Source: Botryllus schlosseri (taxonomy: Eukaryota). From it: a DNA stretch of 64,000 nucleotides. Position numbers and translations under genes: made by a program. Position 1 is the first letter of the stretch. Every line of letters starts with the position of its first letter. The DNA lies in NCBI GenBank assembly GCA_051294905.1, contig CM119372.1:10604001-10668000 (forward strand), given 5' to 3'. The notes below the pieces were generated by a model. It saw nothing but the letters and a program-made list of their open reading frames with translations. It was not told where the DNA came from and did no database searches. Below are positions 17,501 through 60,062 of this stretch, in pieces.

Positions 17501-20500
17501 CGTGATCATAAGAAAAGCGTCGCGTCGAAACATTTTCTGTAGATAGTGCTGGTGGTGTCTGTAAGAAGCTGACAAGCCGAGGCTCGGTACCAACCAACAG
17601 AGTGAAATATACCAGTAATGTATGAAGTCATCTGACTGAGGCCTGAGGGGCCACCATGATAGGAAATATGCGAGCATAGAGTGCAAGAAAATCTAGCAAA
17701 TGTGGAGTAAAGCCAACAATTTATTCAAAAATTTTTGATTCCATGATGACATGGACCGATTCTAACAAAAAAACGTAAAATATTGATCAATTGATTGTTG
17801 AAATGCTGGTCATGGTCAAGACCCAAGGGGATGGGTGGAGCAGTAGCAAACGTGAAAAATTTGAGCTGTTTTACACTGCCAGAAGAATATTAATATTTGG
17901 TGGAACCATTGAAGGAAAGATCCCCTGCAAGGGAGCGGTGGAACCGAAATGAAGAAATATTTTCAATTCTTGCTGTGCCACCAACTATGGTACCAAGTTA
18001 AAGACTGCTCACTGTGTTTAGTACTATATACATCATTTATGAAGACCAGAGAAGTTGAGAAATTGTGCTTCGTGAACTGTAATCTGCAACTACTAGGCTG
18101 GTGCTATTGATATATTTTTATAGCCCCTAGATCAGTGGTTCTCAACCTTTTTGGCCATCACAGACCCTCGCGGACCCCCTTGAATTTTAGTTCAAATTTA
18201 GCTCAATTAAGAGGCAGCCGTCACATGTCCTGTGGAAATATGAACTGTAGGCTTGTGATAAACAGCAATAGAATGTCTTTTCTTTAAAATAAAACCATAC
18301 TATTCATGTAAAAATTGGGGAGACCTTTATTATTTCAAAGGTTATTTTGCAGCTGCATTTTTTGAAGTTCGTGGTCGTGTGTTGAACATCCGCGTCTTCG
18401 ATTTGATATGAACGATGAGTGCCGAAAATCCATTTCCACAAAGATAGATGGAGGCTGATGCAATCTTAACGCTTAAGTTATCATACGTCCTCCTTTTTCA
18501 AGTTTTTGAAAATGTCCTCCAACTCCGAGGACGCCTAAATGTCCTCTTTTTTCCAATGCGTCCTCCTTCACAGCTTTTACATCTAAGATTATGGATATAT
18601 TCGAGTGAAAATGTGCATAAATGACGCTAAAGGTAATTCGTGGTCAGATAGCAACTAACGACTTTTTTTAGTCAACACCACTTATTTCGAGAAAAAGTGT
18701 GTAAATCGGAATTCAAACTAACGTAATGACCTTTTTTTAGTCAACCAATCAAATTTGTCAGCAAATATAACGAAATCGGTTGATTTCAGTTTTCATCGAA
18801 GAATTGATAAAAGTGTCCTTATTTCCCTGTTCCAAAATATGGTAACCCTAATTAACGATTAACGATTCCGACGATACTTTTGGTGTGATCGCAACCAAAT
18901 GATGAAACAGATTTCTAATGAACATATCTCGTACTGCCTAATAGTTTTTATCTAGCATCTCATCTTGAAGTTATTCTGGAATAGTGGATAACTGGATATG
19001 TATATCACGGGATAAAATGGATTTCGTGTCAAGTTATCAATCTCTTCATTTGGATAAATTAGGGAACATATTTCAGAAGTTTTTATTTTAAACGACTGTT
19101 CACTACTTTGATGAGACCGATAACTTCAAATCGAAAAGGTTTTGCAGAAGTGACGCTGATTGACCATACTATATCTCCACATTTTTATTTTTTCTACCAA
19201 CCCCAACAAAACGTCTCTAAACAGCAATATGTTTGTGTTAGTAGGTTATAGGTAATTCGGCAATTAAAATGAATTTGGACTGCAGGATATTTCATGTCAG
19301 ACGATTAGTATGATGATGTGAGTCATGAGGCTTTACCAGTTGTGGTGCGAAACTGCCTCATGTTTTCTAAAATAGAATAAAAAATGAAAAATTAGGTTAT
19401 CAATCATTTTGAAAATTTAGAGGTCTCGCGGACCCCCTGAAATTGCTTCACGGACCCCTAGGGGTCCGCGGACCCCCGGTTGAGAACCACTGCCCTAGAT
19501 CATTTATTTCATGTTCAAGCATAGCAATGGCTGTGAAGTTGTTGAAATAAATACTCTTGAGGTGCTAAATATGGGCCTTGAGCTAGATTCCATATCTTTT
19601 GAATATCGGCTGAATTTATCGGTGAAGGTACTGGATATTGGTTTTATCGGTATCGGCTCAGAAATCCAATATCGGTCAGGCTCTAGTTATGACAATTTGT
19701 AGTTGAAAAAACTGTCACTAGGTTTAGCCAAGTGGGTCGTAAAGAATTTCTAAATGCTAGAGTTTCCTGTTCAATTTGCCAAATATGCCAAACACCTCAT
19801 CTTCTCACTATTAGATGAGCAAATACATGTTCTCTCCTCCAAATTAAATTGCCTTTTTTGCCTGTGATCGCCAAAGCCGTGTTCCCTAGGGTGGAGTGAA
19901 AAATGGAAATTTTTGAATTTCAAAAAAGGGTCTTGATATGTGGTGCCAAATAGTAAACAATTAAATTCTGTCATAATTTTGGGTTCGTACACCGTCTAGT
20001 GGTCGTGCAATTTCACCGAACGAGCCGAAAACAGGTAATTTCGCCATATCTTGATCATCACTTACACTAGACAGTCAGTTTTGGGCTTAAAAGATGCAGA
20101 AGCAACATGTTTCTATCTCACTTCCATAGAACTTACTCTTAAAAATGAACAGAAAAAAAGTTACAAGCAAATTTCTGATTTTATAGGTAAAATTAAGCAC
20201 TGAAGCAGTGGGTAGGATGTCAAAAGCGTGTAGTGATTAATCTTATGACTGAGGAACATACCCTATCAATTAGAACCACTTTTTAAAACTTGCTCAAACA
20301 AATGAAACCCTGTCCAAGCATAAATAGGGCTCGGGCATCGAATAAAGACTGCTAAAACTGTATTTAAAACAGCGTCCATTGGTAGTGCAGCGTCACGATA
20401 TCGGTAAGTTTATAACAACGGCTGAGATTTCTTACCAAAATGCTGTCGTAGGGTTTGTATCATATCTGTCACAAAGCTCCTGAATGAAAGCGCAAAAATT

Positions 20501-23500
20501 GAAAATACACATTCAAAACACAAACATCAATTCTATTCTGGAAACAGAAAATTTTAGTAGCAGTATCATATGAGTGTCAGTGTGCACGAACATTAAAATC
20601 ATGTTTAGTATTGAAAGATTTCATCTGCTTTCAAGACTTCAGTTTTCGTCTGATGAGGCTATCCCTACGTTTAAATCCTGAAACATGGGTAGATGCTTCA
20701 GTAACCACGTTTTAATGTCTTTCCACTGCCTGGTTGTGGCAAGGATGACTGAGCCTTAATGGTGATGATCTTAGGTTTTCCACCTCGACATCTGACAAGG
20801 TCTTGATTACAGGCAGCTGTTCAATATCTTTGTGGTTTCAGTTGACAATTTGGTGGAAAGATTAAGCCTTGATGTTGATAACTGGAATTCGGAAGAAACT
20901 GATGCTTAATGTCGCTGTTTTTAGGTTTGGTGTCATTTATATATATCTTCCTTCAAATTCATAATTGGAATTTGGTATGGTATGGTTGTTCTGCGCATAG
21001 CTGTAATCTTGTTAACTGTAAATCTTCGGACGTTTCCCTCCTCGTCACCAAAGCATTCCCAGCAAAATATTCTCTGGATGTTCAAAATGAGCATTTCTTC
21101 GTAGCAAAGATAGTGCAAGGGAGTGAATTCGGTTATCAGTCAGCTTTGTGACACGGGAAACTATATTGTGGAAATTTTAGCACCATCTACAATGGAATTG
21201 TGCATTTTTATTTCAAACCATAACGGAAAATAGACCTCCATGCAAAATTGAGCAAGACAGTTCAGATTTCTCGATGGACGACTCTGTCCCACATAATACT
21301 TTGAAATTTGAGATGCGAGAGTCAACCATATTGAATGAACGACGGGCCAAGCCTCTAAATATTGCAGATCTGGTTCCAATTTACGACTTTGAAGGAGGAT
21401 ATATAAATGAAACCAAAACCTAAAGCAGCAACATTGACACCAGCATCACATTCTTCCAAATTCCAGTTATCAACATCAAGGCTTAATCTTTCCACCAAAT
21501 TGTCAACTTAAACCTCAAAAATATTGAACAGCCGCCTGCATCGCAATCAAGACCTTGTCTGATCACGAGCTGCTGGGAAACCTATGATCATCACCATTAA
21601 GGCTCAGTTATCCTTGCCACAACCAGGCAGTGGAAAGACATGTGACAGTGGTGACATAAGCATCTGCTCAATGTTTCAAGATTTAAACGTAGAGATGGCC
21701 TCATCAGACAAAAACTGAAGTCTTGAAAGCAGATGAAATCTTTCAATACCAAACATGACTTTATTGTTTGTGCACACTGATACCCATGTGATACTGCTAC
21801 TAAAATTTTCTGTTTCCAGTATAGAATTGATGTTTGTGTTTTGAATGTGTATTTTCAATTTTTGCACTTTCATTCAGGAGCTTTGTGACAAATATGATAC
21901 AAACCTTACGACAGCATTTTGGTAAGAAATCTCATGAGGGGGTTTCATTTGTTTGAGTCAGTTTTGAGAAGTGGTTCTAATTGATAGGGTATGTTGCTCG
22001 GTCATAAGATTAATCACTACACGCTTTTGACATCCTACCCACTGCTTCAGTGCTTAGTTTTACCTATAAAATCAGAAATTTGCTTGTAACGTTTTTTCTG
22101 TTCATTTTTAAGAGTAAGTTCTATGGAAGTGAGATAGAAACATGTTGCTTCTGCATCTTTTAAGCCCAAAACTGACTGTCTAGTGGAAGTGATGATCAAG
22201 ATATGGCGAAATTACCTGTTTTTGGCTCGTTCGGTGAAATTGCACGACCACTAGAGGATGTACGAACCCAAAATTATGATAGAATTTATTTGTTTACTAT
22301 TTGGCACCACATATCAAGACCCATTTTTGAAATTCAAAAATTTTCATTTTTCACTCCACCCTAGTGTTCCCGTGTTCACAATAATTTTAGAGCTAGATTT
22401 TCTTGACAGTATTCTTGATTGAAGCGTGAAATTGGACGGTGTGTCATCGTATGGTTCTCAACCTTTTTGTCTTCGCAAACCCCATTTGGACCGTCACGCA
22501 GCTCCGCGGACCCCCCCCCCAAAGTATTAGTTCGAATTTAGCTAAATTATCGCGCAACTGTAATCTGTCTGGTGCAAATAGTAACGGTAGGCTAGTGAGG
22601 AACAGCAACAAAAAATTTTCTCCTGAATATAACTTCATACTATTTATGTAGAAATTGGGTAAATTTTCATTATTTCAAAGCAGAATTCTGTAGCTGCATT
22701 TCTTGTCTGTTGGATCTGGAGTACGGATGCGTCTTTCAAAATCAAAACAGCATTGTTGTGTAGTGCGAAAAAACTGTTCGTTAAACGTTGGTAAATAGAT
22801 GAATTTAATCTTGCGGCTCGATTTGTGATTTGATTTTGGCTGGCTGCTTTACGCCTTCAAATTATTGACAATTTGCGTTCCATGTATCGAGTATCTCAGT
22901 CGTGTATTCAATTGTAATTTCTTCTTCAAATCTTTAGAGAAAGGAAAAGAGAAAGAGAACGCCTAGAAGCGGAGAAGAAATTGGAAAGAGAGAGGAAGGA
23001 GGAAGAAAAAAGGAAGGAGAAAGAGAAGAAAGAATTAGAGAGACTGCAGGCAGAGAAAGAGAAGCAGCAAGCTGAAGAAGAGAAAGTACTGCACAAGCGC
23101 TTGCTGACTGTGCCAATGACTTTTCCATAGCAATTCTTGTGTTTTAGAGAAAGAAAAACGAAAAGCGTGCGGAAGCTTTCAAAAACTTTTTTCGGAGTCC
23201 AGACAAGGCGGCGTCTGTCAAAAAAGTAATCCTTTTTATGGTGATTGCCATGGCGACAGACTGGCATCGTGTTTTGTGCGTTTTCAGACCCCGGAAAGGA
23301 TCGGTATCTTTGTGCCTTTCCAGCCCAAACAGGACATGTTTTTGGCGCCGATTCATCGCAGAAAACTTTCTCCGAGAAGAAAGACGGCGTTTGAGGATGC
23401 GTTTTCCGGACAGGTCTGTGTTGTTTTCGCTGTCTGTAGAGCAGTGAAGTCTAAAGGAGGGTAGAATCGGGGAACCCTGTACCCCTTTCTAAGCTTGACT

Positions 23501-26500: not shown

Positions 26501-29500
26501 GGTGCGTTCTCTTTAGTTTGGAAGACGACGGCCTGGAACTTGTGGACGACGGCGTAAGCTCCCAGGCGGAAGTCCTGCGTGCCAAATTTCTCTCTTTTCA
26601 CACCAATTACCGACCTCCCTACTTTGGGACGTGGCGCAAGAAATCGAAGGTTCTCAGCTACAAGGACCCGTTCAAGAAAGACAACGTGAGTTTTGAAATG
26701 TGCGCGGCAGTTTCAGCGAGTTTAGGATCCAACAATCATTTCAGGATCTGTTCGATTATGAGTTTGACTCCGACGATGAATGGGAGGAGCCCGCAGATGG
26801 GGAGGATATTGATAACAGCGAAGGGGTGCGTATGGAATTGCTAATCTGTTTTTGTCACCGATCACCAGAGTTGATCAGAATGGTCAGCGTTGCTACTGAA
26901 AGAGATTGTTGATATACCCTATTCTTTACAGTTCTCTACTAGTTGCTGACGATGACCCTTGGCGAGTGTCAGCCGAAATTATTTGGTTTTATTTCAATAT
27001 GAATATATTAACAATGGTATAGTGAAGTTCTGATTCTCCAAGTGTCTCTTCAAATAGAAGGAGAACTTTCCTTTTAAACTCCTACTCAATGCTCGAGTAA
27101 AAGTATCAATTTCCAAGACATGTGAAAACTACATCCAGTAGAGGTAGAAAATGAGATTTCTGAAAACTACTCAAGTTTCAAAAATTGGATTTGGTCGAGG
27201 CGGGGGGGTGGGCGTACTATTACCGGTTAATCGGTTGCGGCTATTTTTGTAATTGCAAGATGTGTCATCCCAACTAACACAAAATGACCGATGATGGTAC
27301 AAATATGCTCATCTTTCAGAAATATATTCGGTTACCGTGATACATATGCTTTTCATGCGGTTGTCATTTCACTCTTAAAGGATTCCGACTCATCCCAAAT
27401 CTACTTTGTACTTTTCTAAATCCAAATTGTATAAAGTAGGTAGGTTTGACTAAAAAACTGTTTGACCGGAAGTTGTCTTAAAGGCATAACCAATAAAGTT
27501 AACCTACTTGAGCACTCCAAAAAAGTATAAGTAGCCTACTGTACTGTACAATGCAATAGTATATTCATATTGAAATAAAACCAGGTGATGAGTGTCAGCC
27601 AGAAATATTCAGTTTATTTCAACGTGAATATACTCTTCTGCACCTCCAAGAGTATGTGAGTCTCTGACTAGAATGAAAGCATTTATTCGTTTTTTATCGC
27701 AGGAAGATGAAGGAGAAGGAAATGAGGAAGATGAGGACGACGGATTCTTTGTTCCTCACGGATACCTCTCGGACGATGAGGGAATCGGAGAGGAGGTCTG
27801 CTTTTCGGATGTGATTTGCCCGTTTCACATGACCGAATTGAGTTGTACGCAGGGCGAGGAAATTGTCCAAAAGCCGGATCACAAGCTGAAGCAGAAACAG
27901 CTCGAGTTCGAGGCTTCGTTCAAACGGAAACTCACAAAGTTGACGCCGCTTGTCATAGGATGCGTCTGGAAAGACAGCGCCGCCGCGATCGATAAAGTTC
28001 ACAGAGACTTGTTGGACAGTTATAAGGTGGGTTGTGTTGGTAGTGTCGGTGACTATATCATCATCAGATGGCTCGAGTTATCAAAGATGAGAAAGGTCTG
28101 AATCACCTGAAATCTGTGCCATTACAGAACAGATTACACAACAGACTGGGACATTTTGATGTTCGTAAATTGTCGCCGAGGTTGCGTTTTACCAAATGCA
28201 TATTTGATTGTTCATGAGAGATCAGGGACTTGGTAATTGACAGCGCTGTCGGACTCGCTGGCAAACTTATAAGCGCAAGTTCGTCAACATGAGAAGCTTG
28301 TATAATCGGCATTTCCTAATGATTTGATGCTATTTTGGTAAATTTGAAAAAAATCCAAACCCCTTCTTTTTTTGCGGCTGGCTACGCGCCTGCCAACGCT
28401 ATCTACATTTGTTTTTTCTTCTTGGTTTTGTGTGAGTGAACGCTGTGATTTTTAAAACCGTCAACAACGTTCCATTTCGCAGCCGATATTCCTGTGCAAA
28501 ACTCCGATACCGGTGACGTCAAGTAACGGCGCCGACAATGAGAGAGATTCGCCAGCCGACGCTAAACCCGAAAAGAACAAGACCAAGCATTCGGTGCCCG
28601 AAGAAGGTGGGATATTTAGACTCGATTCCGGCTGCGATGATCGAACCTAGTCGCGTATCGTTTCGATTTAGCAATGCCCGACCTGATCAGGCTGTTGCAT
28701 GGCAATCCGTTGAGCCTCAGTCGCATTGTTAACGAATTTCAAACGTACTGGAGAGTAAAAAACACAGATGCTTCTGCCGGGGTCGGCCCCATCTCTTTGG
28801 ACGATTGCATGGAACAGGATGTTGAAATTGAAGGTTGGTTACGTTTTGATTTTTACACAGCAATAGAGTGCCGAATATCTGCAACGGATGTTGTTAGTTT
28901 TTCTGTGCTTTTGTCTTGTAGCCATTATGTATGCCTGTGCCGAAACAACATTTCGTGTCAATGTCGGGCCTTTGTAATAGCACTAAGATTACGGTTCAAG
29001 TTTGCACATCAACCGTGTTAATTACGACCCTCTTTTATTCAGAATCTGCCGATGCGCAGCCTGAGCCCATGATAGTCGGGAAGCCTTCCACAGAAAAAGA
29101 CATCAGTGCGACGCCCACAAGCAAAAACGGCGATTTTGAAATTTCCAAAGCGCAGATCAGGCTCAAGTGCAAGGAGATCGCCACTTACGAACGAAAAAGC
29201 AATATGAATCGATCCTGCTGGTAAGCTTTTGATAACTTATACACAATGCTGATATCTTTACTGTGGAGGCTCTGATAATTCCTGTAATGTGCTTACAAGT
29301 AGGCGATGACATTTTGACGCACACTGTGACTCGGTGGTGAATAGGAAATGACTCGAGTCAAAACTTCAAAGTAGAACTGACTTGTGACCTCATGGCTTGA
29401 TTACAAACCTGGAATTAGCAGTGCAGGTTGACAACATGTACTTACGTCCTCCAAAAATGTAGAAGTACTTTGTTATTGACCACCCCTGCGCATTCAGTAC

Positions 29501-30878
29501 ATGGCGGTACAAGCACACATAGCATATTTTGCCTTTGTGTGCTAATTGTCGTATCTCTACAGGTTTGTCCGCGACACCATTCTCGCCGGTTATGATTTCG
29601 GCCGCAACGGTGTGCCGGTACCTTGTCGCTGGAAGTACGCTACGGAGGTGCCAAAAGTGCAGTTGCTCGTGTTTCCCGAAGTGAAGAAGGCCGCGGCCGC
29701 AGAGAAACCGCCGGCTCCCGGCACTCCGAAACTGAATCCCGCCGCCAGCATCGCCAAATTCGCCTCCAAGGTTTCGCCGAAGGCCATCTTGGAAAGCAGC
29801 AAATTGAAGTGAGTCTGTCGCGTGAACATTTTACCCAGTGAGATACTGTGTATGCCCTTTGGGATCATCATTGATTCCGTCTGTTACTTGTGGGTTTCGT
29901 TTGGATGACGATAAAGACTCTCTCTCCCAGGGAAGCACAAACGTGGTGCGTGGGTTATGAAGGCGATACCTGTTAGCGATTGAGTAAACTTTGTAAAATT
30001 TGTACCATCTAAAATAGTACATTGAGCTTAAGCACTCTTCGCCCTGATTATTCGAAATTTCATGCTGGTGACGTCATAATTTGTGATATGATTGTTGATA
30101 AGCAATGTTCTTTGTAATTCTCTACTGGTTGCTGACAATTAACCCTAACCAGTATCAGTCGGAAATATTCGAGTTCATTTCAATGTGAATATGTATATTG
30201 AAGTTCTGTACCTCAAAGAAGCTTTTCAAATTTTTTATCTCCATTTTAAAACATGCGTGCCAATTTTTCGGGACTCTCCTGGCTCGAATAGTAACAAAAC
30301 TAATCGGGAAAGATCGATTTCCGAGGCATATATTCACAAATTTTTGTCAGGTTCTAAATATTTTAGACAACTAAGAATACCACGTAAACTCCTTCCGATA
30401 ATATGAATGATAACGATGAAGTTAACATCTTCTATAATCCAGCTTGTTACACACTGAAATTCACGGCTTCAAAGAATTCTGTGTGGCCAAGGTGCCCCTT
30501 CGCGTACTTATATAAGTTTATTTGACCTTTTCAGACACGAAAAAGTCAAAATCACCCACCAGCAATCGCGAGCTTGTTCCATTTCGAAGTTTGCCACCGA
30601 AAAGGTGCGTTGACACGTCCCGATTTGATCGGCAATTGATAAAAATATTTACGGAACTTCTCTCGTTCGTTAAGAACTCCCCCGACGACATCATCGAAAA
30701 GAGCGCCCAGAAAATTTGCGAGGAAAACCGTCTGAAGGCAAAAGAGGCCGCAAAAGTGAAGCCGACGGTACCACCACCGCCGCAGGAAGGCGTGTCTGTG
30801 ATACCGTCTAAAGAGGCGATTCAATCGTTCTTTAAAATGGACAGTAAGAAACTCGGGGAAAAGTCTACAGGCGAATAG
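11579..30878 (+). CDS. CHAF1A: Chromatin assembly factor 1 subunit A (p150), about 22 exons, complete
   Basis: Exons 11579-11612, 11698-11782, 12949-12982, 13054-13147, 13735-14192, 15266-15367, 15423-15839, 15895-16029, 16775-16929, 22938-23085, 23148-23225, 23288-23413, 25408-25490, 26517-26685, 26745-26825, 27703-27795, 27853-28026, 28483-28606, 28672-28833, 29043-29220, 29563-29808, 30535-30604, 30675-30878. Shows N-terminal KKLKQAQLP, VIDLT SIM, KER helix, KFLSFHTNYRPPYFGTW, DYEFDSDDEWEE, DGFFVPHGYLSDDEG and winged-helix LIRLLHGN. Confidence 0.93.
12326..12700 (+). repeat. Unclassified dispersed repeat (second copy inverted at about 52375-52730)
   Basis: About 370 bp alignable by eye to the reverse complement of 52375-52730. 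Confidence 0.75.
14206..14588. mobile_element. GACTCGAGTC-repeat hAT MITE family copy
   Basis: Ends (C)GGGGTTGTAACCAAGTC / AACCCTG; aligns to the 34103-35008 and 56081-56660 copies. Confidence 0.75.
18133..19492. mobile_element. hAT (Charlie/Buster-like) element nested in 17106-19685
   Basis: TIR CAGTGGTTCTCAACC / GGTTGAGAACCACTG; perfect TSD CCCTAGAT. Confidence 0.88.
18473..18850. mobile_element. hAT MITE (TAGGGTTACCATA type) nested in 18133-19492
   Basis: Right end ATATGGTAACCCTA with a degenerate left end; aligns to 57789-58407; TSD 6/8. Confidence 0.7.
19887..22363. mobile_element. Foldback hAT (hATm-like) derivative with ~1-kb inverted arms and transposase remnants
   Basis: Termini TAGGGTGGAGTGAAAAAT / ATTTTTCACTCCACCCTA; perfect TSD GTGTTCCC (19879-19886, 22364-22371); transposase-like fragments HSIWLTLA..VYFPLWFEIK..DGAK (-) and YPCHNQAVERHV (+). 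Confidence 0.88.
25916..26431. mobile_element. hAT MITE inserted into the TIR of a GACTCGAGTC MITE
   Basis: TIR TAGGGCTGGGCA / TGCCCAGCCCTA; perfect TSD GTTACAAC, which is part of the host end GACTTGGTTACAACCCTG. Confidence 0.85.
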
Positions 30879-31248: not shown

Positions 31249-34200
31249 TCAATTCTGAGTGATCATTGTGGTGCCGCTTGCGAGTCCGTCAGTGGCTGTG
31301 ATGGACGGCAGTTGTAGACTGTTGCTTTCCACAGCTTGTGGGGTCTCTTCCTCGTTCTGTGTTGTGACTTTCAGAATGCCTTCGATGTCGTCGATCGCTT
31401 CCTTGAAATTTGATTTACCCTGTAAACCAGATGGAGGTGGTCAGAGTAAATGAACTACAAATAGGTGCTAATTTTGAAAATGATATCTTGAGATAGGGCT
31501 GTCTCACCTGGTGGTGGCAACTTGCCTGAAAAAAACTGGATGGAAGTACATTGTTACTGACCACCTCTGAAACCAGGAGATAGGCTGTCTTAGATGTACT
31601 TGATTTACGAAAAATTTCGATCCTATTTCAAGCCTTCAAAAATTTCGATCCTATTTCAAGCCTTCAAAATTCAGAACATATAGGCATATTTTAGAATTTC
31701 ATCCCGGACCTAGTTTGAACAGTGAAATTCCGGACATGTCCGGGAAATTCCGGACATGTCCGGGAAACTCCGGACGTATGACAACCTTATCATAGTTGCG
31801 TCGTACAAGCATCAATACACCGATGCTAGTTTGTGACTGATGCCTGACATTGCCATGATCAGAAGAGGTCTCTGAATTTGGAGTAACTATGGTGAATGCG
31901 GGACTCTCTAGGTGTTGACTGATGCTTTCATGGTATGTCAACCATCTGTGCAGAGAGCGTAGGATGACACATAGTTATGGAGAAGTAAAATATTACTTTA
32001 TATAAGGTCATGTTCTATACCAGGGGCGGGCAACTTCTCCATTCGGCGGGCCGGATATAGGAAAATTAAGTATTAATCTAAGACAGCCTATCCATTCTCA
32101 GATTAGTTGAATTCCTTGTGAGGTGGTAGGGTACTTCATCCCAAATGCAAGGATATTTGCAGGTTATGTGTCCGATCAGAGTCATGTTCTACATTTTCAC
32201 ATCCGAACATCCATTCACAATGGTAATCCAGCCAATGTATTGTATTGATTGTGTCTCCATTATACTCTTGTGCTGTCTCAAATCCTATAATTAATCGAGG
32301 CGTTTATGATAGTTACGACAAAATAGCTCTTCACCTGCATATTCGGAGCAGATATCTCCTGGTGGATCACTGATAGACCGCGTGCGAACGAGGCCAACGT
32401 TCCTGGAAGGTCTTCGCCAATCGTTCTGCATAAGTGACACGAGCAAATACTTATTGGGGATATATGTCGAGAATTGAATTGACTTATCTTACAGCATGCC
32501 CATTCTGTCCCTTTTCGATGAGTTGACCAGGGTGAATATGGTGCCCTGTCGCTCTTTGATATCAAATCCTATGCCGTGCGCCCTGCACATCTTCAAATAA
32601 AATGGTATTGATGTTAGAAACTGGAGTGGAAATAGTGTTATTCCTGACGGAACAAGTCAGGTGTTTGGTAGTTCAGAGAGGTGGATGTCTCAATGCATCT
32701 GAACTGGCACAGGTTAGCTAGTCTACCATGAATATGACATAAAAACATTATGACGACGCCGCTGGTCGATCTATACTTCAAAGACATATCGTTTTATGAA
32801 CATTTGTAGCCCTTAGCCACATGCTTTGGATGCTGTAGTATGAATTAATCATCGAAACGATAATCTAAACATGATTGTTAGTCAGAATAGATATATGAAT
32901 TCAGTACTCCAAGTCGCTTCAACACCTTCCTGTCTTTTCACTGTATCGCGTTTTTGTGGTGTTTTGAACTGATAAAGATTGCTAATAAACCAATGATGAT
33001 GATGATACTGGGAAGAATTGACACGAACTGCTCATTGAATAATTAAAATCAAGACTCGTCGAGCCGTAACTGAAGATTTTTTCTATCAATAACGTACTCT
33101 CTGTCGTACTAATTTTGACAAGTAATAAGCAAACAAGAAACTTCTGAACTAGTAGAAAAACCAAGCTAGGTTGAGCATGCAGTTCTATTATTTATTACAT
33201 CACAGTAGTTGCGATATCAGTTATGAACTGTGAGAAACATGAAACGAAATGCATATATGTGCTTTTAGAGTCATTGTATCACTGACTTGGTGATCTAATC
33301 CTAACGTTACCTGAAAAAACACGTTGTAGTGCACGACGGCCATGTTGGAATGTATGAGGTTGGTGCTCATAACACAGAATCTGTTCAAGTTTGGAGGCGG
33401 CTGAAATAAAGAAAGACATGCATCGCTGGTAGTTGCGTTGAAGAGACTTGCTTGTATTTACAAAATTTACCTTTTCGACAACTTGATGCTCTCTACGAAA
33501 CCGGCCGAGCTTCTCTTTAGGTGGCGGGAGCACACGAAAATCACATTTTGCGGGATCAAAGGTGCCGCAGGTTACAAACAACATCAGTTGTGTCATGGCT
33601 AAATTGTCACTGAAATAAAGAACGCAAATTACCGATGAAATAAAGCTAATAAGATCTTTTTATATGCATGCTTCTTACATATTATGACTACCGGTATGTA
33701 AGATTTGCATTAGATATTTTGAGTGCCACATTTGAAACAGTAGTGCTGCTCATTTGAATGACTGAAATAAAGTTGTTTCGAGTTACACATTGACACTTTC
33801 TATTTAAATCAATTGATTCTAACACATAATCACAACCTTGAGCATGACCATAATTGGCATTGTCACTCAAATGAACTTTAACCAAGATTGTTACTCAATG
33901 AACACAATTTTCATTAGGCTATGCATTCAAATGAGCTGTCAGCCTCAATCACATATTGGCAAATGCAATCATTAAGTGCTGCCTGACACAGTGTCAATGG
34001 CACGATGCCCAAAATACGAAGAAATACAATAGGTAAAAACTCAATGCCATCATCAAAGATCAGATCAACACAATCCAAATGCAGGCTGGCCATGCGCAAT
34101 AACAGGGTAGTAACCAAGTCACAAGTCAATCTCACTTTTATAATTTTGACTCGAGCCAAGTCGAGTCATTTTCAATTCACCACCGAGTCAAGTCCGAACC

Positions 34201-37200
34201 TAAGTCAACTAGTAAAGTGCTGAGTCCGAGTCCAAGTCATTATGTTCACTGTTCAGTTTTCAGTTCAATCCAGTTCAACCCACTTTTTTCAACTCTTCTC
34301 GAGTTATTTAATGACTCGCATTCATAATATAATAATTTTCCTCAAAGTTTCTGACCCTATTTTTCCAGTATCAGAAATGATAGACGAAGTACCAATAATG
34401 TGGTAACTTTACTATTCTTCGAAGTTGGAATGAAAGGTCTGCCTTGCCGTCCTAGTCTCGAGTCATATGACTTGGTTCAAGTCACGCACAAGTTCTACTT
34501 GAGTACAAGTCGAGTCATTTTACGCATTTGAAAAATTGAATAGTATATTCATATTGAAATGAACCCGAATATTTTCGGCTGACACTCGTCAGGGGTAATC
34601 GTCAGCAACTAGTAGAGAATTGGAAAGAACATTGTATATCAACAATCGTATCACAAAATATGACGTCACCGGCATGAAAAAACTCTGTCAACAGAAGGAG
34701 TTCGTGTACCACCTAAAAATAGTACATTGAACGCTCTCTCTTTCATGCCGGTGACGTCATATTTTGTGATACGATTGTTGATATACAATGTTCTTTCCAA
34801 TTCTCTACTAGTTGCTGACGATTACCCCTGACGAGTGTCAGCCGAAAATATTCGGGTTCATTTCAATATGAATATACTATTCAATTGTATATTGAAGTTC
34901 TGTACCTCCAAGAAGCTCTTCAAGCATTTGAAAAAATGACTCGAGTCAAGTCGATTCACTAAAAAATCGTGATTCGAGTCAGACTCGAGTCGAGTCATTA
35001 CAACCATGGGCAATAATATGAAAGAGAGGTGCGAATAGTCTCATTTTGAAACCAACCTGTAACCAATTGTGAGATCCGTAGCCCATAATACTTGTTTGAA
35101 TTCGTGATTTATGTAGGTGACAAAATCGATCGAAAAGTGACCGACGACTCCCCTGGCCCGTGACGCTTCAGCGATTCTCACACATGTAGCCTCCAACTGC
35201 GCTGGTTCCACGGAAGCCTGCACAATGCACAAGTGACGCATTGGGACCAATCATTTGAAAGCGGCAACATAATCGCCAGAGGATGTCAGTAATGAAATTC
35301 TAGTGCGGTGGTTCCTAACATGGACGATTTTGAGAAACAAGGGGGCGAAAATACCAAACACAGCCAAAAAATGCACGTGAAGACGGCTTATTCTGTGTAT
35401 GACGCGAAAATTTACTAAATAAATGGTCAACCCAACAGAAAGTAGTCGCGGAAGCCGGTTTTCCGAGCACCATCTGGGAAAAATGACCCTTTCTTTAGTC
35501 AATTCACCAGCGATCAGAGTTAGGTGAATAATTTCCTGTTTATATGTCCTCTTTTTCTCACTTGTAATTGAGTAGAAGTGTACAGAGAGAGTTATTTCTA
35601 CTTTGAGTACAAACGATGACAACTGCGACCACCACTTACTTTTGGAAATCACTACTTCCACCTGCAGAGTAGAAATTTACAGATCTACTTCTACATCTAC
35701 TCAAGTGCCAACGCTGACTGCTTGATTATCTCTGGCAATCGCTCACTTGCGGCACAGACACTCCCCAGCTCGTCAATTCGTTTCCGGCGTGAATTTGATC
35801 GCCACAGGACAACATTTGCACGAGTCCAGTCGGGTCTATGAACATATCGACGGTGAGACAGGTGATGCTGTCCGAGGGCGGGAATGCTTCTATCACTCCT
35901 CCCTGAATTTTGAGATGATATTACGGACAACGTGATGCAAAGCTTATAATATATTATATTATATATTAAAGTCACAGTAACTCACCTGGCTAAGAAATGC
36001 TTCTATAAAGCCGTTCCAAGTCTTGAAGCCTTCCGCGGAGGCCGGTTTCGCGTGTCTCTCGAGACATATCGGAATCTCATTCAGCATCTTGTTGTAGGCG
36101 GCGTCCTGCAAAACAACTTGAAAATGAGTGAAATGAATGAAAATTTTTGACGTGAGGTCACGTGTCACCGACCATGGCATGACAAAAAAGATTAATTTCC
36201 AGGTCAAAATCAATTCCCGTGACACAGCCAAGATGCAAATGCAGAGGTCGCAGACACTGAGACGAAGGAAATAAATATAGGGTCACAATGACGAAAACGA
36301 GAAAAAAAATATGTTAGTTAAGTACAAGTAAAAATTAGTTGTTATACGCAACGATTTGGGCACTAGAATCCGAGTCGAGTCGATTGGCTTTATCATAGTA
36401 TCCAAAGCATTTTTGAGTGGTGATTAACCCAGAGCATCATCACATAGTTAAGGTTAACAAACAAGGAAACATTTACTTGCTAAGTCTAACTGGGGTTCTT
36501 TTCTTTGCTGTTACATGAAGGGTACATATTTCAACTTTGTAATTCGCTCTTAATATGTATGGCGTCATAGTGAGTGGTACACTACTCGAGGTTTAATACT
36601 TCCAACCACTGATATACCTGCGCCCATCTTTTACTCCACTTTTCGCCGTAACGAATGCTTTCTTTCACCATCCACGCATAACTCGGCAAGTATCTGAAAC
36701 ATATTCCGCATCGTTATCATCTTCAAGCCTTTGCCGACATCCAATCTCACTTAGCGATATCGATATAAGCGATTCCACGCCCTCCAAAGCCATTATCGGT
36801 TTTGAACAACCATCTCCTAATGTACGGATTATCGCAAACAAGCCTCGATAAGTTCTCGTGCAGCTGCGGTAACGAATACACATCATGTTCCCCGGGCGGG
36901 CACATCGCTTTGGCGGCAGCAAATATTCTTCTAGCGCCGGACTTACTGCTATAAAGGTGACAAATCTAAAGAGATATCATGTCAGTTACTCGTGTTCAAT
37001 TTAATGTTATCAAGCCAACGCACCTCAGGATCAGATCCCAGAATGGGAATTCCAAGGTCGTCAGCTACAGCTACGTCGTCCTTGTGTACGATGGACGGAA
37101 CTAAATAAGCCTCGCGGCCTTTGATCAAACGCTCTATTCTCTTCATAGCGCGGGGGCTGTACTTTAGCAAGGACGAAAGGCACATCTGGTGCGTCTGCGT

Positions 37201-40200: not shown

Positions 40201-43200
40201 GAACAGATCTGCATTCATCAATGATAAAAAGACATAATTTTGATGGAAGCATTGTAGTGGGTATCTTAGACAAAAATGAAAAGTAAGTTTCTGTTGTAGT
40301 AAGATTCAGACAGGGATTAGAGATGTGCCAAAAATTATCCAATTCTCTACTTGTTGCTGACGATTACCCTTGAAAAATGTCAGTCGAAAATTTTCGGGTT
40401 CATTTCAATATGAAAATACTATTCAATTGTAAGTTCTGTACCTCAAAGAAGCTCTTCAAAGAAATTATTAAAGACAATATAATACATGATTAGGTTGTTC
40501 TATGAATTACATTTTTCCAGGACACTCATTGTCATTGACTGAGTGTCAACTGAATCTCGTGACCAGGGTCATCCAACTGGAGCCAAATCCATGTTGGATT
40601 GATTTTTGCCAGCTGTGCCGAATAAATGAGCCCGAGTCTATTAATCTATAATAGTCGTACAGCAGATAACCAAGTCATCATGTTTACACTACCTCCACTT
40701 CTACTTACTTAGAATTTTGTAAAGTAGAGTGGAATTTGTAACAACGACTGGCCAGAATAGGCCTAGTATCACAGTAACTGACTGTATTTTAGAAAATTGC
40801 ACCTATTTGCCGTGTCATTAGTCATCACATGCAAATTACGAAGATGTACTTTGCAATTTCGAGATTAGCTACCTCTGATTAACTGCTAAAAATAGTTAGG
40901 AAAATTATTACTTTAGTAATTTCAAGCCCTTCATTTTCTATTTCTATTAGTAGTCGTTTTGACGTCTGGTAAATCACTACTCGTACCTGTAATTGAGCAT
41001 AAATTCAGGGTGCTACATCTACTTTGCCAATCTCTGCGTACATATAATCAGGCCTCCACATATTCCAATAATTTTTTTTACAAAAAATTCTTTTACAAAA
41101 TTCAAGAAAACTGTCCATACCTGTCACCGTGCACTCTAGCAACAGGTACTGCGTAGTCACACAATAGTCTTTGAAGTCTTCCCAGCATCGTGATGATCGG
41201 CCCCCAGTTTAACAAATACCGTTGCCTGAACGCAGCGAATTCGGGGTCCAAGGTAGGCGGATTGAGAAGAGCGCCGTCGCGGAGATTGAATTGGTATCCG
41301 TCCGACACTGGCACGAGCTGCGACCCTTCTTCTTTGAGAGCGGGGGTCACGGGTGGGGGTTGCGGGTGATCCTGGATTAAGTCTGGAATTAGCTGGTTTC
41401 GCTACGCGCGGTCGCCTTCGGAACGTACCATGATTTGAAGAGGCGCTTCAAATGTCGTTAACGTTAATGGTGTGCGGGATACGAGCGAATTCGCAGACTT
41501 GTGGTGTGATAATATCGGAGAGTGAATCATAACTGATCGAACCTGAGGAGATCTTGTGCCTGCAATTGTGATTAGTAGGGCGGTTTTTTTTTGACATGTC
41601 AAAATTTGTCAAAATTTTGTCAAAATTGTAGCGTTAGGTCAAAATTTGTCAAAATTGTTCATAAAGTCAAAATTTTTTTGACGTCTGTATTTTGTTTGTA
41701 TCGTAGATTTTGCGCTGTCGGTGAACGTATCATTTGATATTTTACAGCTTGTAGCCTACTTTATAGGCCTACTGTTGTAAACGGCTAATTGTCTGCTCAT
41801 ACTGAATCATAAACGGTCAAATAAATCAAATAGGTGGACATGGTATTATGGTCAACGTACCGCAATATCCTAACTGGGCATCATTCTTATATTGAGAAGC
41901 GCATGATGAAAAATTGTAATAGACAACATTGTCAGAATGAAGCAACATGGTGTGTCACCAGTAGTGTATGCACAACTTGAGTGTTGTCAACCAACAACTG
42001 CTGCTGTTGAACGTCCTTGGCAAGTAAGGACATGCACTTTTTACCCAAGAATATAGGAAAGTATCTCTCGTTGTACTACAATTTTTTTCAAATTATTTCC
42101 ACCATAATACGTATTGCAACCACTGGAATTCTTCATAGGATCAGATTTCGTTAAAATATTGTTTTTTATATGTACAAAGTTGCCTGTTTCTCTGCCAAAA
42201 ACGTTTTTTCAGGCCAAACTACTTTGTTGGGACAGCCAGTTACAACCGGAAATGTAGGTAACTGGTACAATTTTGAGATTATTTGGGAAAACACCTAATT
42301 TGCATACGTTAGGTCAAAATTTGGTCAAAATTCAAGTTTTTTAGGTCAAAAAAAGTCAAAATTTTGATTTTTTAGGTCAAAATTTTCTTTTTTTGGGGTC
42401 AAAAAAAAACCGCCCTAGTGATTAGTAATATTTATCGCCTTGGTATCGTAGTGTAGACTAGCCCGTGTTTACTATCTTATCTCTGAAATATTCATGCAAT
42501 ACCTACTGTCCTTAATCGCTTGCACATTTTATAAGATGATGCCTGTGTTTTCTCATTAATCATGCCTGACTCTTGTCAGCAATGTTCCCTCTAAGCTGCG
42601 CACGTGCGCAGTGCTGACACGGTCTCTGCGCACAGAAAATCTAAGCTCCGCACAAAAACCTTAAGTGACGACCCTTTTTTTAGTCGTTACGCACTGTTGT
42701 CCAAGGGTCTGCGCAGTGAGTTAGTGAGTGTGCGCAGACTTGTCAAAAATTAGAGGGAACATTGCTTGTCAGCATATCTTTTTCTCTACATACCAATGCA
42801 CCAAGTTCAATGCATCTTTAAGTAACTTCTCGAGGTCATTTCGACAAGTTTTTCGTAGTGATACGATGCTATTTAAACAACGAACGATTATTATCAGTCA
42901 TACGGTTGATTGACTTATTCTACGCTCAGAAAATCCTATACTCATCAAGATAGAGTAGGATGGAAACGGCATAGTGGACAAGAACTATAAGAAGCATGCC
43001 TTGGAAAAGGTAATGCCCGGAAAATAATTCTTTCAAGTACAACTAGAAGAGCTGGGCAAAATCTAGAATCCAGGTGATTAGATTCGAAGCCGAGTATATT
43101 AAGTGTCGAGTCGACTATTCGAGAACCACCTATTATGACTTGAAAACAGCAATAATGATATGATATGTATCTTTTATGCTACCACGAAGGAAACGATTCC

Positions 43201-54163: not shown

Positions 54164-54801
54164 CATCATCATCATCATTGGTTTATTAGCAATTTTATCA
54201 GTTCAATACACCACAAAAAATGCGATACAATGAAAAGACAGGAAGGTGTCGAAGCGACAAGGAGCAGTAGTAGTAGATAGTATAGAAAAAGAAAGCGACA
54301 ATAAATAGGGCGGCATGTCATGGGAAGCGAGATCGATAGGTCAGTCGTGGTCCGGTAATCTTGAGGATGGACTGTATTTATTTAGTAGTAATTGCTTGTA
54401 TTTCGACTTGAATGTGGACATGCTCGTCGACTGTCGGATGGCCGGCGGGATACTGTTCCACACATCAGGTCCGGCATATTTGATAGAGCGATGATCTTTT
54501 CGGTCGATCATATGATATTTGGACGACGTGGACGCGCGTGTGTTGTACTTGTGCGCTTTTGATTCCGAGGTAAAGAAGTCATTGAAATATTCGGGGCAAC
54601 GACCGCAGTGGAACTGATACATAAACTTGGCGATTTCTAGTTTCCGCATATCTTCTATGTTTAGGACGCCGAATCTCTTCAGCAGCGACTTGTTGGATGG
54701 GCAGCCAGGCCCCTTTGGGGCCCTAGCTATGATTCGGAGTACTTTATGTTGTAGTTTTTGCAGTGGCTTGAGTGCAGTTTTACTGGCAGCCCCCCAACAG
54801 A
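54164..54801 (-). mobile_element. 5'-truncated CR1/L2-group LINE copy
   Basis: Near-identical to 59402-60060; ends AATAAACCAA(TGA)n; TSD GGGTCT (54158-54163, 54802-54807). Confidence 0.9.
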
Positions 54802-54913
54802 GGGTCTGGCCATGGATTTCCAATGATATTATCATTATTTTATCCATGTCCAGAGTCCACTTGTCCAGTCCATAGAAAACTGAAACTAATTTAGTTTTCC
54901 ATGATATGTAAAC

Positions 54914-55226
54914 GACAAGATAGCGTGATGGTGAAGCGTCCGGCTTCTTGATCGGTGGGTAGTGGGTTCGATCCCCGGCCGGGTCAGACCAAAGACCGGA
55001 TTAGTAACACTGGTATCCATGACTTCCCTGCTTGGCGCTCATGCATTACTGAGATAGCATGGAGGGGTGGTGCATGACTTAGAAAGCCGTAAAGGTTATA
55101 TCTGCACTTCCTTGTCCAGGGACATATGCACATCATGCATTCATGGCATGCATATGCACAGATCGTGTGTATGTGTATCGTGAATCGGTGTATATGCCGC
55201 AAAAAAACATCAAGGACAAAAATAAA
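54914..55226 (+). mobile_element. tRNA-derived SINE, copy 3
   Basis: Aligns to 433-740 over its full length. Confidence 0.85.
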
Positions 55227-58407: not shown

Positions 58408-58464
58408 TAATTATTATAGTATAATAGCAGGATTGTAACCAAGTCACATGGTTCCGAGTCACGA

Positions 58465-60062
58465 GCTATCTAGTCCAAGCTATCTAAAAAAAGCCAGAGT
58501 AGTCCCTGTACACAAAGCTGGGGATAGAACTAATGTCACCAACTACCGTCCGATATCCGATCTCCCAAGCATCGGGGTTGTATTCGAAAAGTTGCTCCTC
58601 TCCCGCCTGTCCTCCTTCCTCGCCAAAATGTCTGTCATTTCCCCTCAACAATTTGGCTTCCGAAACAAACACCAAACCGCTCATGCCCTCTTAACAGTGG
58701 CCGAACAGTATTATGATATCTCAGAGAAGCGAAATGTGGGATGTAGCATTTTTCTCGACCTAAAAAAAGCGTTTGACTGCGTAGATCACAAAATTCTCAT
58801 CTCGAAATTGGTGCGCTACGGACTTCGGGGCCCACAACTTGAGCTCATGAAAAATTTCCTCACTGGACGCCAACAAATGGTTGCGATCTCAGACACCTTG
58901 TCCTCTCCTCACCTGGTGACCTGTGGTGTGCCCCAGGGCTCAGTACTTGGGCCGGTCCTTTTCACCTTATATGTCAACGACATATTTGAAACCTCCTCAT
59001 TGAACACCACACTGTTCGCTGATGATACTCACCTCCTCTCTTCCGCATCTTCGACGGCAGAGCTGGATGCCCTGACTGGTGACCAAATGCCCAAAGTCCA
59101 TGAGTGGACGGCCCAGAACAACCTTTGCATAAACGCCGCGAAATCGCAATTGCTGACAGTAAATTTAAAAAATAACCTAACCGTTAATATCGCTGGTCAG
59201 CCCGTTTCCAACACAGATAATGCCAAATATCTCGGAGTTTTACTGGACTCGAACATGTCCTGGAAGAGTCATATTCAGTCCCTAGAAACTAAGTTATCAC
59301 CGAAGTGCGACCTGTTCTACAGCCTTGGGCGCTTCATGCCAGCATGGGTTCTTCTGATACTCTTTAAATCCTTAATCCAATCGAAGTTACATTATGGCAT
59401 CCTCTGTTGGGGGCTGCCAGTAAAACTGCACTCAAGCCACTGCAGAAACTACAGCATAAAGTACTCCGAATCATAGCTAAGGCCCCAAAGGGGCCTGGCT
59501 GCCCATCCAATAAGTCGCTGCTGAAGAGATTCGGCGTCCTAAACATAGAAGATATGCGGAAACTAGAAATCGCCAAGTTTATGTATCAGTTTCACTGCGG
59601 TCGTTGCCCCGAATATTTCAATGACTTCTTTACCTCTGAATCAAAAGCGCACAAGTACAACACACGCGCGTCCACGTCGTCCAAATATCATATGATCGAC
59701 CGGAAAGATCATCGCTCTATTAAATATGCCGGACCTGATGTGTGGAACAGCATCCCGCCGGCCATCCGACAGTCGACGAGCATGTCCACATTCAAGTCGA
59801 AATACAAGCAATTACTACTAAATAAATACAGTCCATCGATCCTCAAGATTACCGGACCACGACTGACCTATCGATCTCGCTTCCCATGACATGCCGCCCT
59901 ATTTCTTGTCGCTTTCTTTTTCTACACTATATTCTTTACTTTCATTCAGTGTGCATGCCTCCTCTTTACATCGCCTAGGCCAAGGTCGGTGTCTGATTCC
60001 ATAGACTACTCCAAGTCGCTTCGACATCTTCCTGTCTTTTCATTGTATCGCATTTTTGTGGT
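58465..60062 (+). mobile_element. 5'-truncated CR1/L2-group LINE with reverse transcriptase (one frameshift)
   Basis: ORFs 58448-59476 and 59407-59889 carry NYRPIS, QFGFR, FLDLKKAFD, GVPQGSVLGP, FADD, KYLGV and a C-terminal YNTR..GPDVWNSIP..FKSK. Endonuclease is absent. Confidence 0.93.

Follow-up and report, generated by a model that had tools for sequence, protein, structure and literature searches.

Two inverted arms, each holding a hammerhead ribozyme motif, raise the question of which mobile element left them in the genome of Botryllus schlosseri and what sort of ribozyme they encode. The locus lies in a stretch of 64,000 nucleotides of contig CM119372.1 (hereafter the window, to which positions refer), where a first-pass annotation had read it as a young Penelope-like element (PLE) insertion carrying a minimal type I hammerhead in both orientations. 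The analysis described below makes it quite probable that the insert, 390 bp in total length, is a 5'-truncated, head-to-head PLE end, likely generated by priming on two strands, and that its hammerhead likely has a 6-bp pseudoknot in the place of stem II.

Architecture of the insertion

The two arms (34534-34679 and 34741-34886) are each 146 nt long and 100% complementary, as the first-pass annotation had described, and are separated by a spacer of 61 nt. An extension of 37 nt (34887-34923), also reported there, continues the direct arm as a tail, which genome copies match at 98-99%, and the hammerhead motif was found in both arms (plus strand, 34824-34857; minus strand, 34563-34606). The features of the locus are as follows:

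34103-35008, no strand: MITE-like host repeat bounded by short terminal inverted repeats; it predates the insert, without which it measures about 500 bp
34524-34535, plus: left copy of the target-site duplication (TSD), 12 bp, its last 2 nt overlapping the arm end
34534-34679, minus: inverted arm, comprising a 5'-truncated 3' UTR, the hammerhead and the beginning of the ORF; its end is the 'short' site (+19 from the ATG)
34563-34606, minus: mirror copy of the hammerhead, with a predicted cut after the C at 34567, derived from arm symmetry
34680-34730, plus: final 16 codons of the PLE ORF with its stop, where the endonuclease domain ends, matching residues 833-848 at 100% by tblastn
34741-34886, plus: direct arm, pseudo-LTR part, with 3' UTR, hammerhead and the first codons of the next ORF, from comparison of arm and ORF
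34814-34819, plus: leader hexamer, predicted from covariation to form a 6-bp pseudoknot with loop II (34837-34842)
34824-34857, plus: type I hammerhead core, with 4-bp stem I, CUGANGA, 1-bp stem II, GAA and palindromic stem III
34868-34923, plus: start of the PLE ORF, 18 full codons (34868-34921), its ATG 14 nt past the predicted cut
34887-34923, plus: tail of 37 nt, its end being the 'long' site (+56 from the ATG)
34924-34935, plus: right copy of the TSD, 12 bp

The spacer between the arms codes for residues 833-848 of the element ORF, and the arm end together with the tail codes for its first 18 residues. The earlier statement that this copy has no ORF holds for a whole ORF and fails for its two ends, the last 16 and the first 18 codons, which are present. 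Moreover, the direct part of the insert matches, at 98.4% identity, the ends of an ORF of RT and GIY-YIG type that is intact and 848 aa long (locus L033), which bears out the Penelope-like assignment: the insert is a truncated, head-to-head end piece of an abundant Penelope/Poseidon-type element. Both arms run continuously over the predicted cut site, and the template was therefore uncut or re-ligated there.

With respect to the target, the 10-bp TSD previously placed inside a MITE stands as a duplication in a MITE-like repeat, but is best read as 12 bp with 2 nt shared with the arm end. This host repeat gave 5,821 first-look candidates genome-wide, the top copies being 80-85% identical. What had been taken for an empty site near 14547 is a paralogous, shorter copy of the host repeat in which the target is present once, and not an empty allele; a strict site pattern matched one of 19 other host-repeat loci (L240), where the target is likewise single.

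Further fragments of the same element family lie in the window at 30050-30235, 40338-40460, 26904-27056, 27547-27637 and 8396-8433, the five being older or shorter (83-89% identity) and 27547-27637 forming a tiny inverted pair. The endonuclease region of a sister PLE family is weakly matched by tblastn (37%, E 2e-9) at 8047-8127. Nested inverted repeats of 310 bp at 97% and 563 bp at 88% occupy 20000-22249; their inner arms contain a CTGATGA...GAAA motif with an unconvincing stem I, and the motif pair at 20650 and 21674 was rejected as a second PLE ribozyme for lack of stem I. The open frames at 54341-55000 and 58439-59889, whose C-terminal part is repeated, presumably resemble fragments of LINE-type reverse transcriptases, judging from their motifs.

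The element family and its protein

Many copies of the direct part occur at 98-99% identity in the 495.5-Mb genome (2,258 candidates, 40 scored), and such near-identical copies support the presumed youth of the element. A 33-letter pattern of the ribozyme has 3,561 exact matches in the same genome (1,801 + 1,760), against none on either strand (0 + 0) for its reversed control, and so the motif is not a product of chance. A looser pattern, for which some sites were counted twice, gave 3,063 matches against 68 in the control. Longer copies reach an intact 848-aa ORF (loci L033, L097 and L100), and on one contig three ORF starts follow each other with a tandem period of 2,692 bp, each unit comprising a single ORF and, 14 nt ahead of its ATG, a single hammerhead. 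The link between arm copies and an RT plus GIY-YIG ORF that the Penelope-like reading called for is present in the genome, full tandem units included.

The 848-aa protein matches RVT_1 above the cut-off (E 8e-9) and shows DKG, YVDD and, at its C-terminus, GIY-YIG-type motifs. Its last 139 aa match the Pfam GIY-YIG family weakly (E 0.019, below the cut-off); this domain scores above the cut-off in both homologues scanned (P0012 and P0085, the latter aligning with the ORF over its full length at 42%) and reaches E <= 0.1 in 13 of 30 alignment members. Searches of solved structures with the ORF protein returned weak RT matches alone, with no GIY-YIG chain among them, and a database search yielded 813 homologues among 8,000 candidates scored, nearly all of them without a name. 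A single ORF with a PLE-type RT and with GIY-YIG at its C-terminus, tandem units, pseudo-LTRs (pLTRs), an inverted copy, a 30-40-bp tail and a TSD are all features of EN+ PLEs. A CX2-5CxxC Zn-finger within the linker that joins RT to EN marks the Neptune and Nematis groups (PMC8557442, in the part available), and this pattern is absent over the entire 848-aa ORF. The family fits the Penelope/Poseidon type by the criteria of that work, an assignment made by features; the tree that was built comprises homologues without a name and one protein labelled reverse transcriptase.

At least five further PLE families with intact ORFs reside in the genome (loci L108-L137, L139-L141, L151 and L163-L165), several of them in multi-unit tandems with periods of about 2,722-2,825 bp. 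Besides, four copies of the 5' part of the ORF are spaced by 359 bp in inverted tandem pairs at L095-L096 (G000:C1:37767676-37768840), and these may be short pLTR repeats without coding capacity, similar in size to retrozymes.

The hammerhead core and its stems

The motif of the direct arm has a CUGANGA / GAAA / NUH core, with stems I-III in the order of a type I hammerhead:

34824-34827 with 34854-34857, plus: stem I, 4 bp
34828-34834, plus: core box (CUGANGA)
G34835 with C34843, plus: stem II, a single G-C pair
34844-34846, plus: GAA
34847-34852, plus: stem III palindrome, 6 nt
34853, plus: C17, with cleavage predicted 3' of it

Cleavage after C34853 is predicted from hammerhead numbering. 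The first-pass annotation had described a minimal type I hammerhead of the published kind, which does not hold for stem II. Between the two core boxes G34835-C34843 is the sole pair that can form, and stem II is therefore one base pair, in contrast to the long helix II of the published motifs; a helix II of at least 3 bp, as defined for minimal hammerheads by Cervera and de la Pena, is lacking in the window hammerhead, while the 6-nt palindrome does correspond to their minimal palindromic helix III. Loop II (34837-34842) is complementary to a hexamer immediately upstream of stem I (34814-34819), and this covarying Watson-Crick pairing of loop II with a strand on the side of stem I is what defines pseudoknot hammerheads. 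The comparison of related sequences makes it likely that stem II is replaced here by a 6-bp pseudoknot. A helix IV is not apparent by eye in the leader region of the alignment, and the proposed scan with hammerhead models (Rfam at gathering thresholds) gave no match in the 64-kb window.

Comparative support for the proposed pseudoknot

Sister families of the same genome, with ORFs 57-69% identical, keep the pairing of leader and loop II with different letters (for instance GCTGAC/GTCAGC, ACTAAC/GTTAGT and CGTGCC/GGCACG) and have another palindrome or near-palindrome as stem III. Two metagenome loci with protein segments 51-53% identical show the pseudoknot form with yet another leader/loop pair, and their motif has no match in the B. 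schlosseri genome at one mismatch. In these metagenome relatives (L174:2232-2270 and L175:575-611) the 3' strand of stem I and the ATG overlap, and in L174 the ATG lies 3 nt past the predicted cut.

A structural alignment of 16 representatives, picked by hand from 72 motif variants, left 99.1% of 224 cells paired when the pseudoknot was included, with two-sided changes in 9 of 14 pairs overall (5 of 6 in the pseudoknot and 3 of 4 in stem I). Positions 3 and 8 are C-G in nine of these sequences, U-A in six and U-G in one, and the G10.1-C11.1 pair is invariant in all 16. None of 500 shuffles, which ignore relatedness, reached the observed paired percentage or score, and controls with a slid register were 23-41% paired. 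In an unselected recount, 58 of the 72 motif variants form at least five of the six pairs in the fixed register and 14 form four or fewer; counted as distinct leader/loop types, 26 of 40 reach five pairs or more, compared with a null mean of 15.4 and with none of 5,000 null draws attaining that number. Among regions fetched for their unusual loops, blind to the leader, 8 of 14 pair and 6 have four pairs or fewer.

More distant PLE relatives (34 loci, best-segment identity 27-60%) contain ten motifs, every one of which has a long helix II, the pseudoknot type being absent among them, and the variant thus seems confined to one subclade, a taxonomic range that rests on the two metagenome loci and these 34 more distant ones. 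The 34 distant contigs (L259-L292) are filed in prokaryotic MAGs, and probably represent eukaryotic contamination. In viral contigs, none of 36 pattern matches was confirmed. Preferential conservation of the ribozyme among young copies, which the first-pass annotation had expected, goes in the right direction (minor alleles 12 of 3,254 in the ribozyme against 64 of 5,958 elsewhere in the arm) but is given little weight with 74 copies and non-independent sites.

Folding, transcription and possible role of the predicted ribozyme

The predicted minimum-energy fold of the monomer (-10.5 kcal/mol, z -0.66) is non-catalytic, with a trapped core, and folding of the single strand, a method blind to pseudoknots, produced no signal (z -0.6 to -1.3). 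Modelled without the pseudoknot, the three-way junction scores unfavourably (+5.2), and a self-duplex of stem III is marginal (-0.2). In four RNA runs, 3-6% of each being sampled, no pile-up of molecule ends was seen anywhere, and such libraries may lose cut ends. RNA reads on the element fall almost solely on the repeated end, on both strands; 65-97% of the aligned reads continue into unlike sequence, and depth over the 5' part of the ORF is near 0-2, a pattern that looks like host read-through of truncated copies. The two orientations of the window copy, moreover, are no source of a dimer partner, since a given transcript includes a single sense copy, with its own antisense arm ahead of it. 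Whichever the direction of transcription, the antisense arm is made first; a 146-bp duplex therefore likely masks the sense ribozyme, and the window copy is likely silenced in this form.

For the family, our best guess is that the ribozyme processes transcripts of tandem loci into RNA of unit length. In all eight family representatives examined, 3-24 nt separate the predicted cut from the ATG downstream of it, and viral type I hammerheads located just upstream of ORFs support cap-independent translation (PMC13725137, in the part available); by this precedent, a role in translation is a fair hypothesis. Both facts also favour a reading, to our judgement rather unlikely, in which the fold serves mainly as a scaffold, whether for protein binding, for RNA dimers or for the start of translation, and cuts weakly or as a by-product. 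In this regard, minimal PLE hammerheads were poor cutters in vitro (PMC4209133), and the ribozyme of an anole element required protein and had no reads ending at its site (PMC11167929, available part). However, conservation of the catalytic positions and of the C3-G8/U3-A8 pair extends over families with ORFs 57-69% identical, as expected under selected catalysis, and the viral translation effect itself required the catalytic base (PMC13725137).

A second possibility, which we hold for distinctly unlikely, is that the pairing of leader and loop II acts as a brake or switch that keeps the RNA uncut as a template. Templates are indeed continuous over the cut site, RNA ends at this position were not seen in the four runs, and the anole element with ribozyme mutants still inserts in vitro (PMC11167929). 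On the other hand, the pairing leaves all core nucleotides, stem I and the invariant G10.1-C11.1 free, and in the window family the leader duplex (-9.6 kcal/mol) outcompetes the hairpin that traps the CUGA core (-4.7 kcal/mol). Equivalent pseudoknots, furthermore, accelerate cleavage: activity has been described for a 1-bp stem II combined with a 6-bp pseudoknot (PMC3088659, PMC11300833, as far as the available parts go). A supporting role of the pseudoknot in catalysis is what we prefer.

Element ends and integration

Thirty ends chosen regardless of the tail fall into two groups, 17 at +10 to +24 and 12 at +50 to +60, with one elsewhere; those of the window copy are +19 and +56 relative to the ATG. 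A TSD of 8 bp or more flanks 29 of the 32 head-to-head pairs and is missing from the other three. Every one of the 29 TSD-bearing pairs combines a short with a long end, 10 of them coming from loci chosen by the ribozyme pattern alone and the others from a tailed query that preselects one long end. Their TSDs measure 12 bp in 16 pairs, 13 bp in nine, and 11, 14, 15 and 16 bp once each, so that 25 of 29 have 12-13 bp and 12 bp is the mode of the family, with 77% AT. Arm and internal lengths differ between copies, and the arms are truncated independently.

Positions 2-5 of the TSD match the next bases of the element at 2.23 against nulls of 1.47 and 1.45 for short ends (n=26), and at 2.96 against 1.90 and 1.59 for long ends (n=26), whereas positions 7-11 show no excess over the nulls. 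In the window copy, which is a poor example in this respect, microhomology is absent from the long end and amounts to 2 nt at the short one; a right-end microhomology was considered for this copy and rejected, as the continuation of the element differs from the target. The combination of one short and one long end with 12-13-bp TSDs suggests that both cut strands prime, and the simplest reading is a cut with a 12-nt stagger in which both 3' ends prime at preset RNA sites, short pairing setting the register. In vitro work with an anole element described cutting of both strands, a pair of internal start sites that delimit the tail, the use of uncut RNA, and initiation without homology at the start site (PMC11167929, available part). 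No statement on twin priming of PLEs was found in the literature searched.

It has been proposed for rotifer Penelope elements, from palindromes at inversion junctions, that the inverted arm derives from self-priming or fold-back on the antisense template (PMC3846280, available part) and not from two target ends. Applied here, such a fold-back alone would leave unexplained the rule of one short and one long end (29 of 29), the 12-13-bp TSD, the target-matched registers at both ends and the independently truncated arms, which makes it very unlikely. The idea that a fold-back DNA transposon or a faulty assembly accounts for the locus, with a chance motif, as its perfect inverted arms and the silence of Rfam might suggest, hardly deserves belief, being already contradicted by the ends of an RT-element ORF inside the insert, the variable arm and internal lengths among copies and the motif counts (3,561 against 0 in the control).

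Relation to known systems

The element class and the layout of an inverted arm plus tail are already known. The comparisons that follow draw on the available parts of the sources cited. With EN+ PLEs of the Penelope/Poseidon clade (PMC3846280, PMC8557442), the family shares a single ORF of about 850 aa with RT followed by a GIY-YIG-type domain, partial tandems, a pLTR with the first codons, an inverted 5'-truncated copy, a 30-40-bp tail, a TSD and a linker lacking the Zn-finger. Pen2a of the rotifer Adineta, for example, has a pLTR with first codons, an inverted pLTR, a 31-bp tail and a 9-bp TSD (PMC3846280). The TSD of the rotifer examples compared is 8-10 bp, in contrast to the 12-bp mode of B. 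schlosseri, and the hammerhead architecture differs; the strict rule of one short and one long end is, unlike in the rotifer PLEs compared, quantified here. The Poseidon element PAc of Anolis (Frangieh 2024, PMC11167929) shares two-strand cutting with extension, AT-rich targets, two internal starts, an uncut RNA template and the lack of RNA ends at the ribozyme site. Its starts lie about 111-118 nt into the ORF and need no homology in vitro, whereas those found here are at about +18 and +54 with an excess of matches over 2-5 nt, and the PAc cut falls inside the ORF while ours is predicted 14 nt upstream.

As for the ribozyme, the minimal type I hammerheads that metazoan PLEs carry (Cervera and de la Pena 2014, PMC4209133) have in common with it the type I topology, the location in the pLTR, a short stem I, a palindromic stem III that implies dimers, the G10.1-C11.1 pair and a covariant U3-A8. 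Their helix II is long (3-7 bp in the descriptor, usually 5-8 bp) instead of one base pair plus a leader pseudoknot; the rows examined of the supplementary alignment have a multi-pair helix II, and the word 'pseudoknot' has no match in supplement file 2 of that article. The ten motifs of the 34 distant PLE loci are of the Cervera and de la Pena type and not of the pseudoknot type. Dimer-dependent cutting has been described (PMC4209133, PMC6765202), and by analogy the palindromic stem III would be consistent with it. Pseudoknot hammerheads (Perreault 2011, PMC3088659; PDB 8YDC, PMC11300833) likewise have a helix II that is cut down to one pair or gives way to a 6-bp pseudoknot helix beside the core. 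The tested 1-bp-stem example, however, is a type II metagenome ribozyme, whereas the window hammerhead is a predicted type I motif hosted by a retroelement and has a minimal palindrome as stem III; in 8YDC the partner of the pseudoknot is an extra stem-loop (helix IV), in place of which we find a single-stranded leader 5' of stem I. Non-LTR retrozymes (PMC7229834; bioRxiv 2026.07.22.740005) are likewise non-coding, hammerhead-bearing and PLE-related, but consist of tandem units joined head to tail, whose type I ribozymes are canonical. The window insert, a head-to-head truncation of an autonomous family, has no head-to-tail non-coding monomers; its arms are head to head and the tandems in the genome are coding.

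What is new is a predicted hammerhead of pseudoknotted dimer type, strongly supported by covariation across families, together with the regular statistics of the junctions. No pseudoknotted PLE hammerhead was found in the literature searched; Lunse et al., on PLE hammerhead dimers and outside that search, may already describe one.

Proposed mechanism and implications

Transcription of tandem loci would yield RNA with two or more hammerheads. In such RNA the helix of leader and loop II may stack on the single G10.1-C11.1 pair and brace the core, while the palindromic stem III would pair across two units, and cutting would therefore need a dimer, perhaps also the element protein. At integration, the endonuclease would cut AT-rich DNA at positions about 12 nt apart; priming would start near ORF position +18 at one 3' end and near +54 at its counterpart, and base-pairing with the RNA over 2-5 nt would fine-tune the register; two short cDNAs would then join head to head. 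The window copy would have been dead on arrival, its ribozyme masked by its own antisense arm.

A bolder proposal, which we put forward tentatively and consider rather doubtful, is that a subclade of Penelope/Poseidon elements has a hybrid hammerhead, absent from the literature consulted, in which a brace of the fast pseudoknot type is combined with a palindromic stem III, so that cutting would be efficient only when two units pair; the same dimer would present the +18 and +54 sites to the 12-nt cut, and the cut just before the AUG would serve translation. If true, this reading ties the dimerisation of the ribozyme to the two-armed insertions.

The form of ribozyme described here escapes both Rfam and the published minimal descriptor, and pseudoknotted PLE ribozymes may thus be undercounted. 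Moreover, its natural compensatory variants offer a test of whether PLE hammerheads are poor catalysts or have been assayed without their brace. Finally, this young family, which has intact ORFs and whose ends exist in thousands of nearly identical copies, provides clean junction statistics for the mechanism of Penelope integration.
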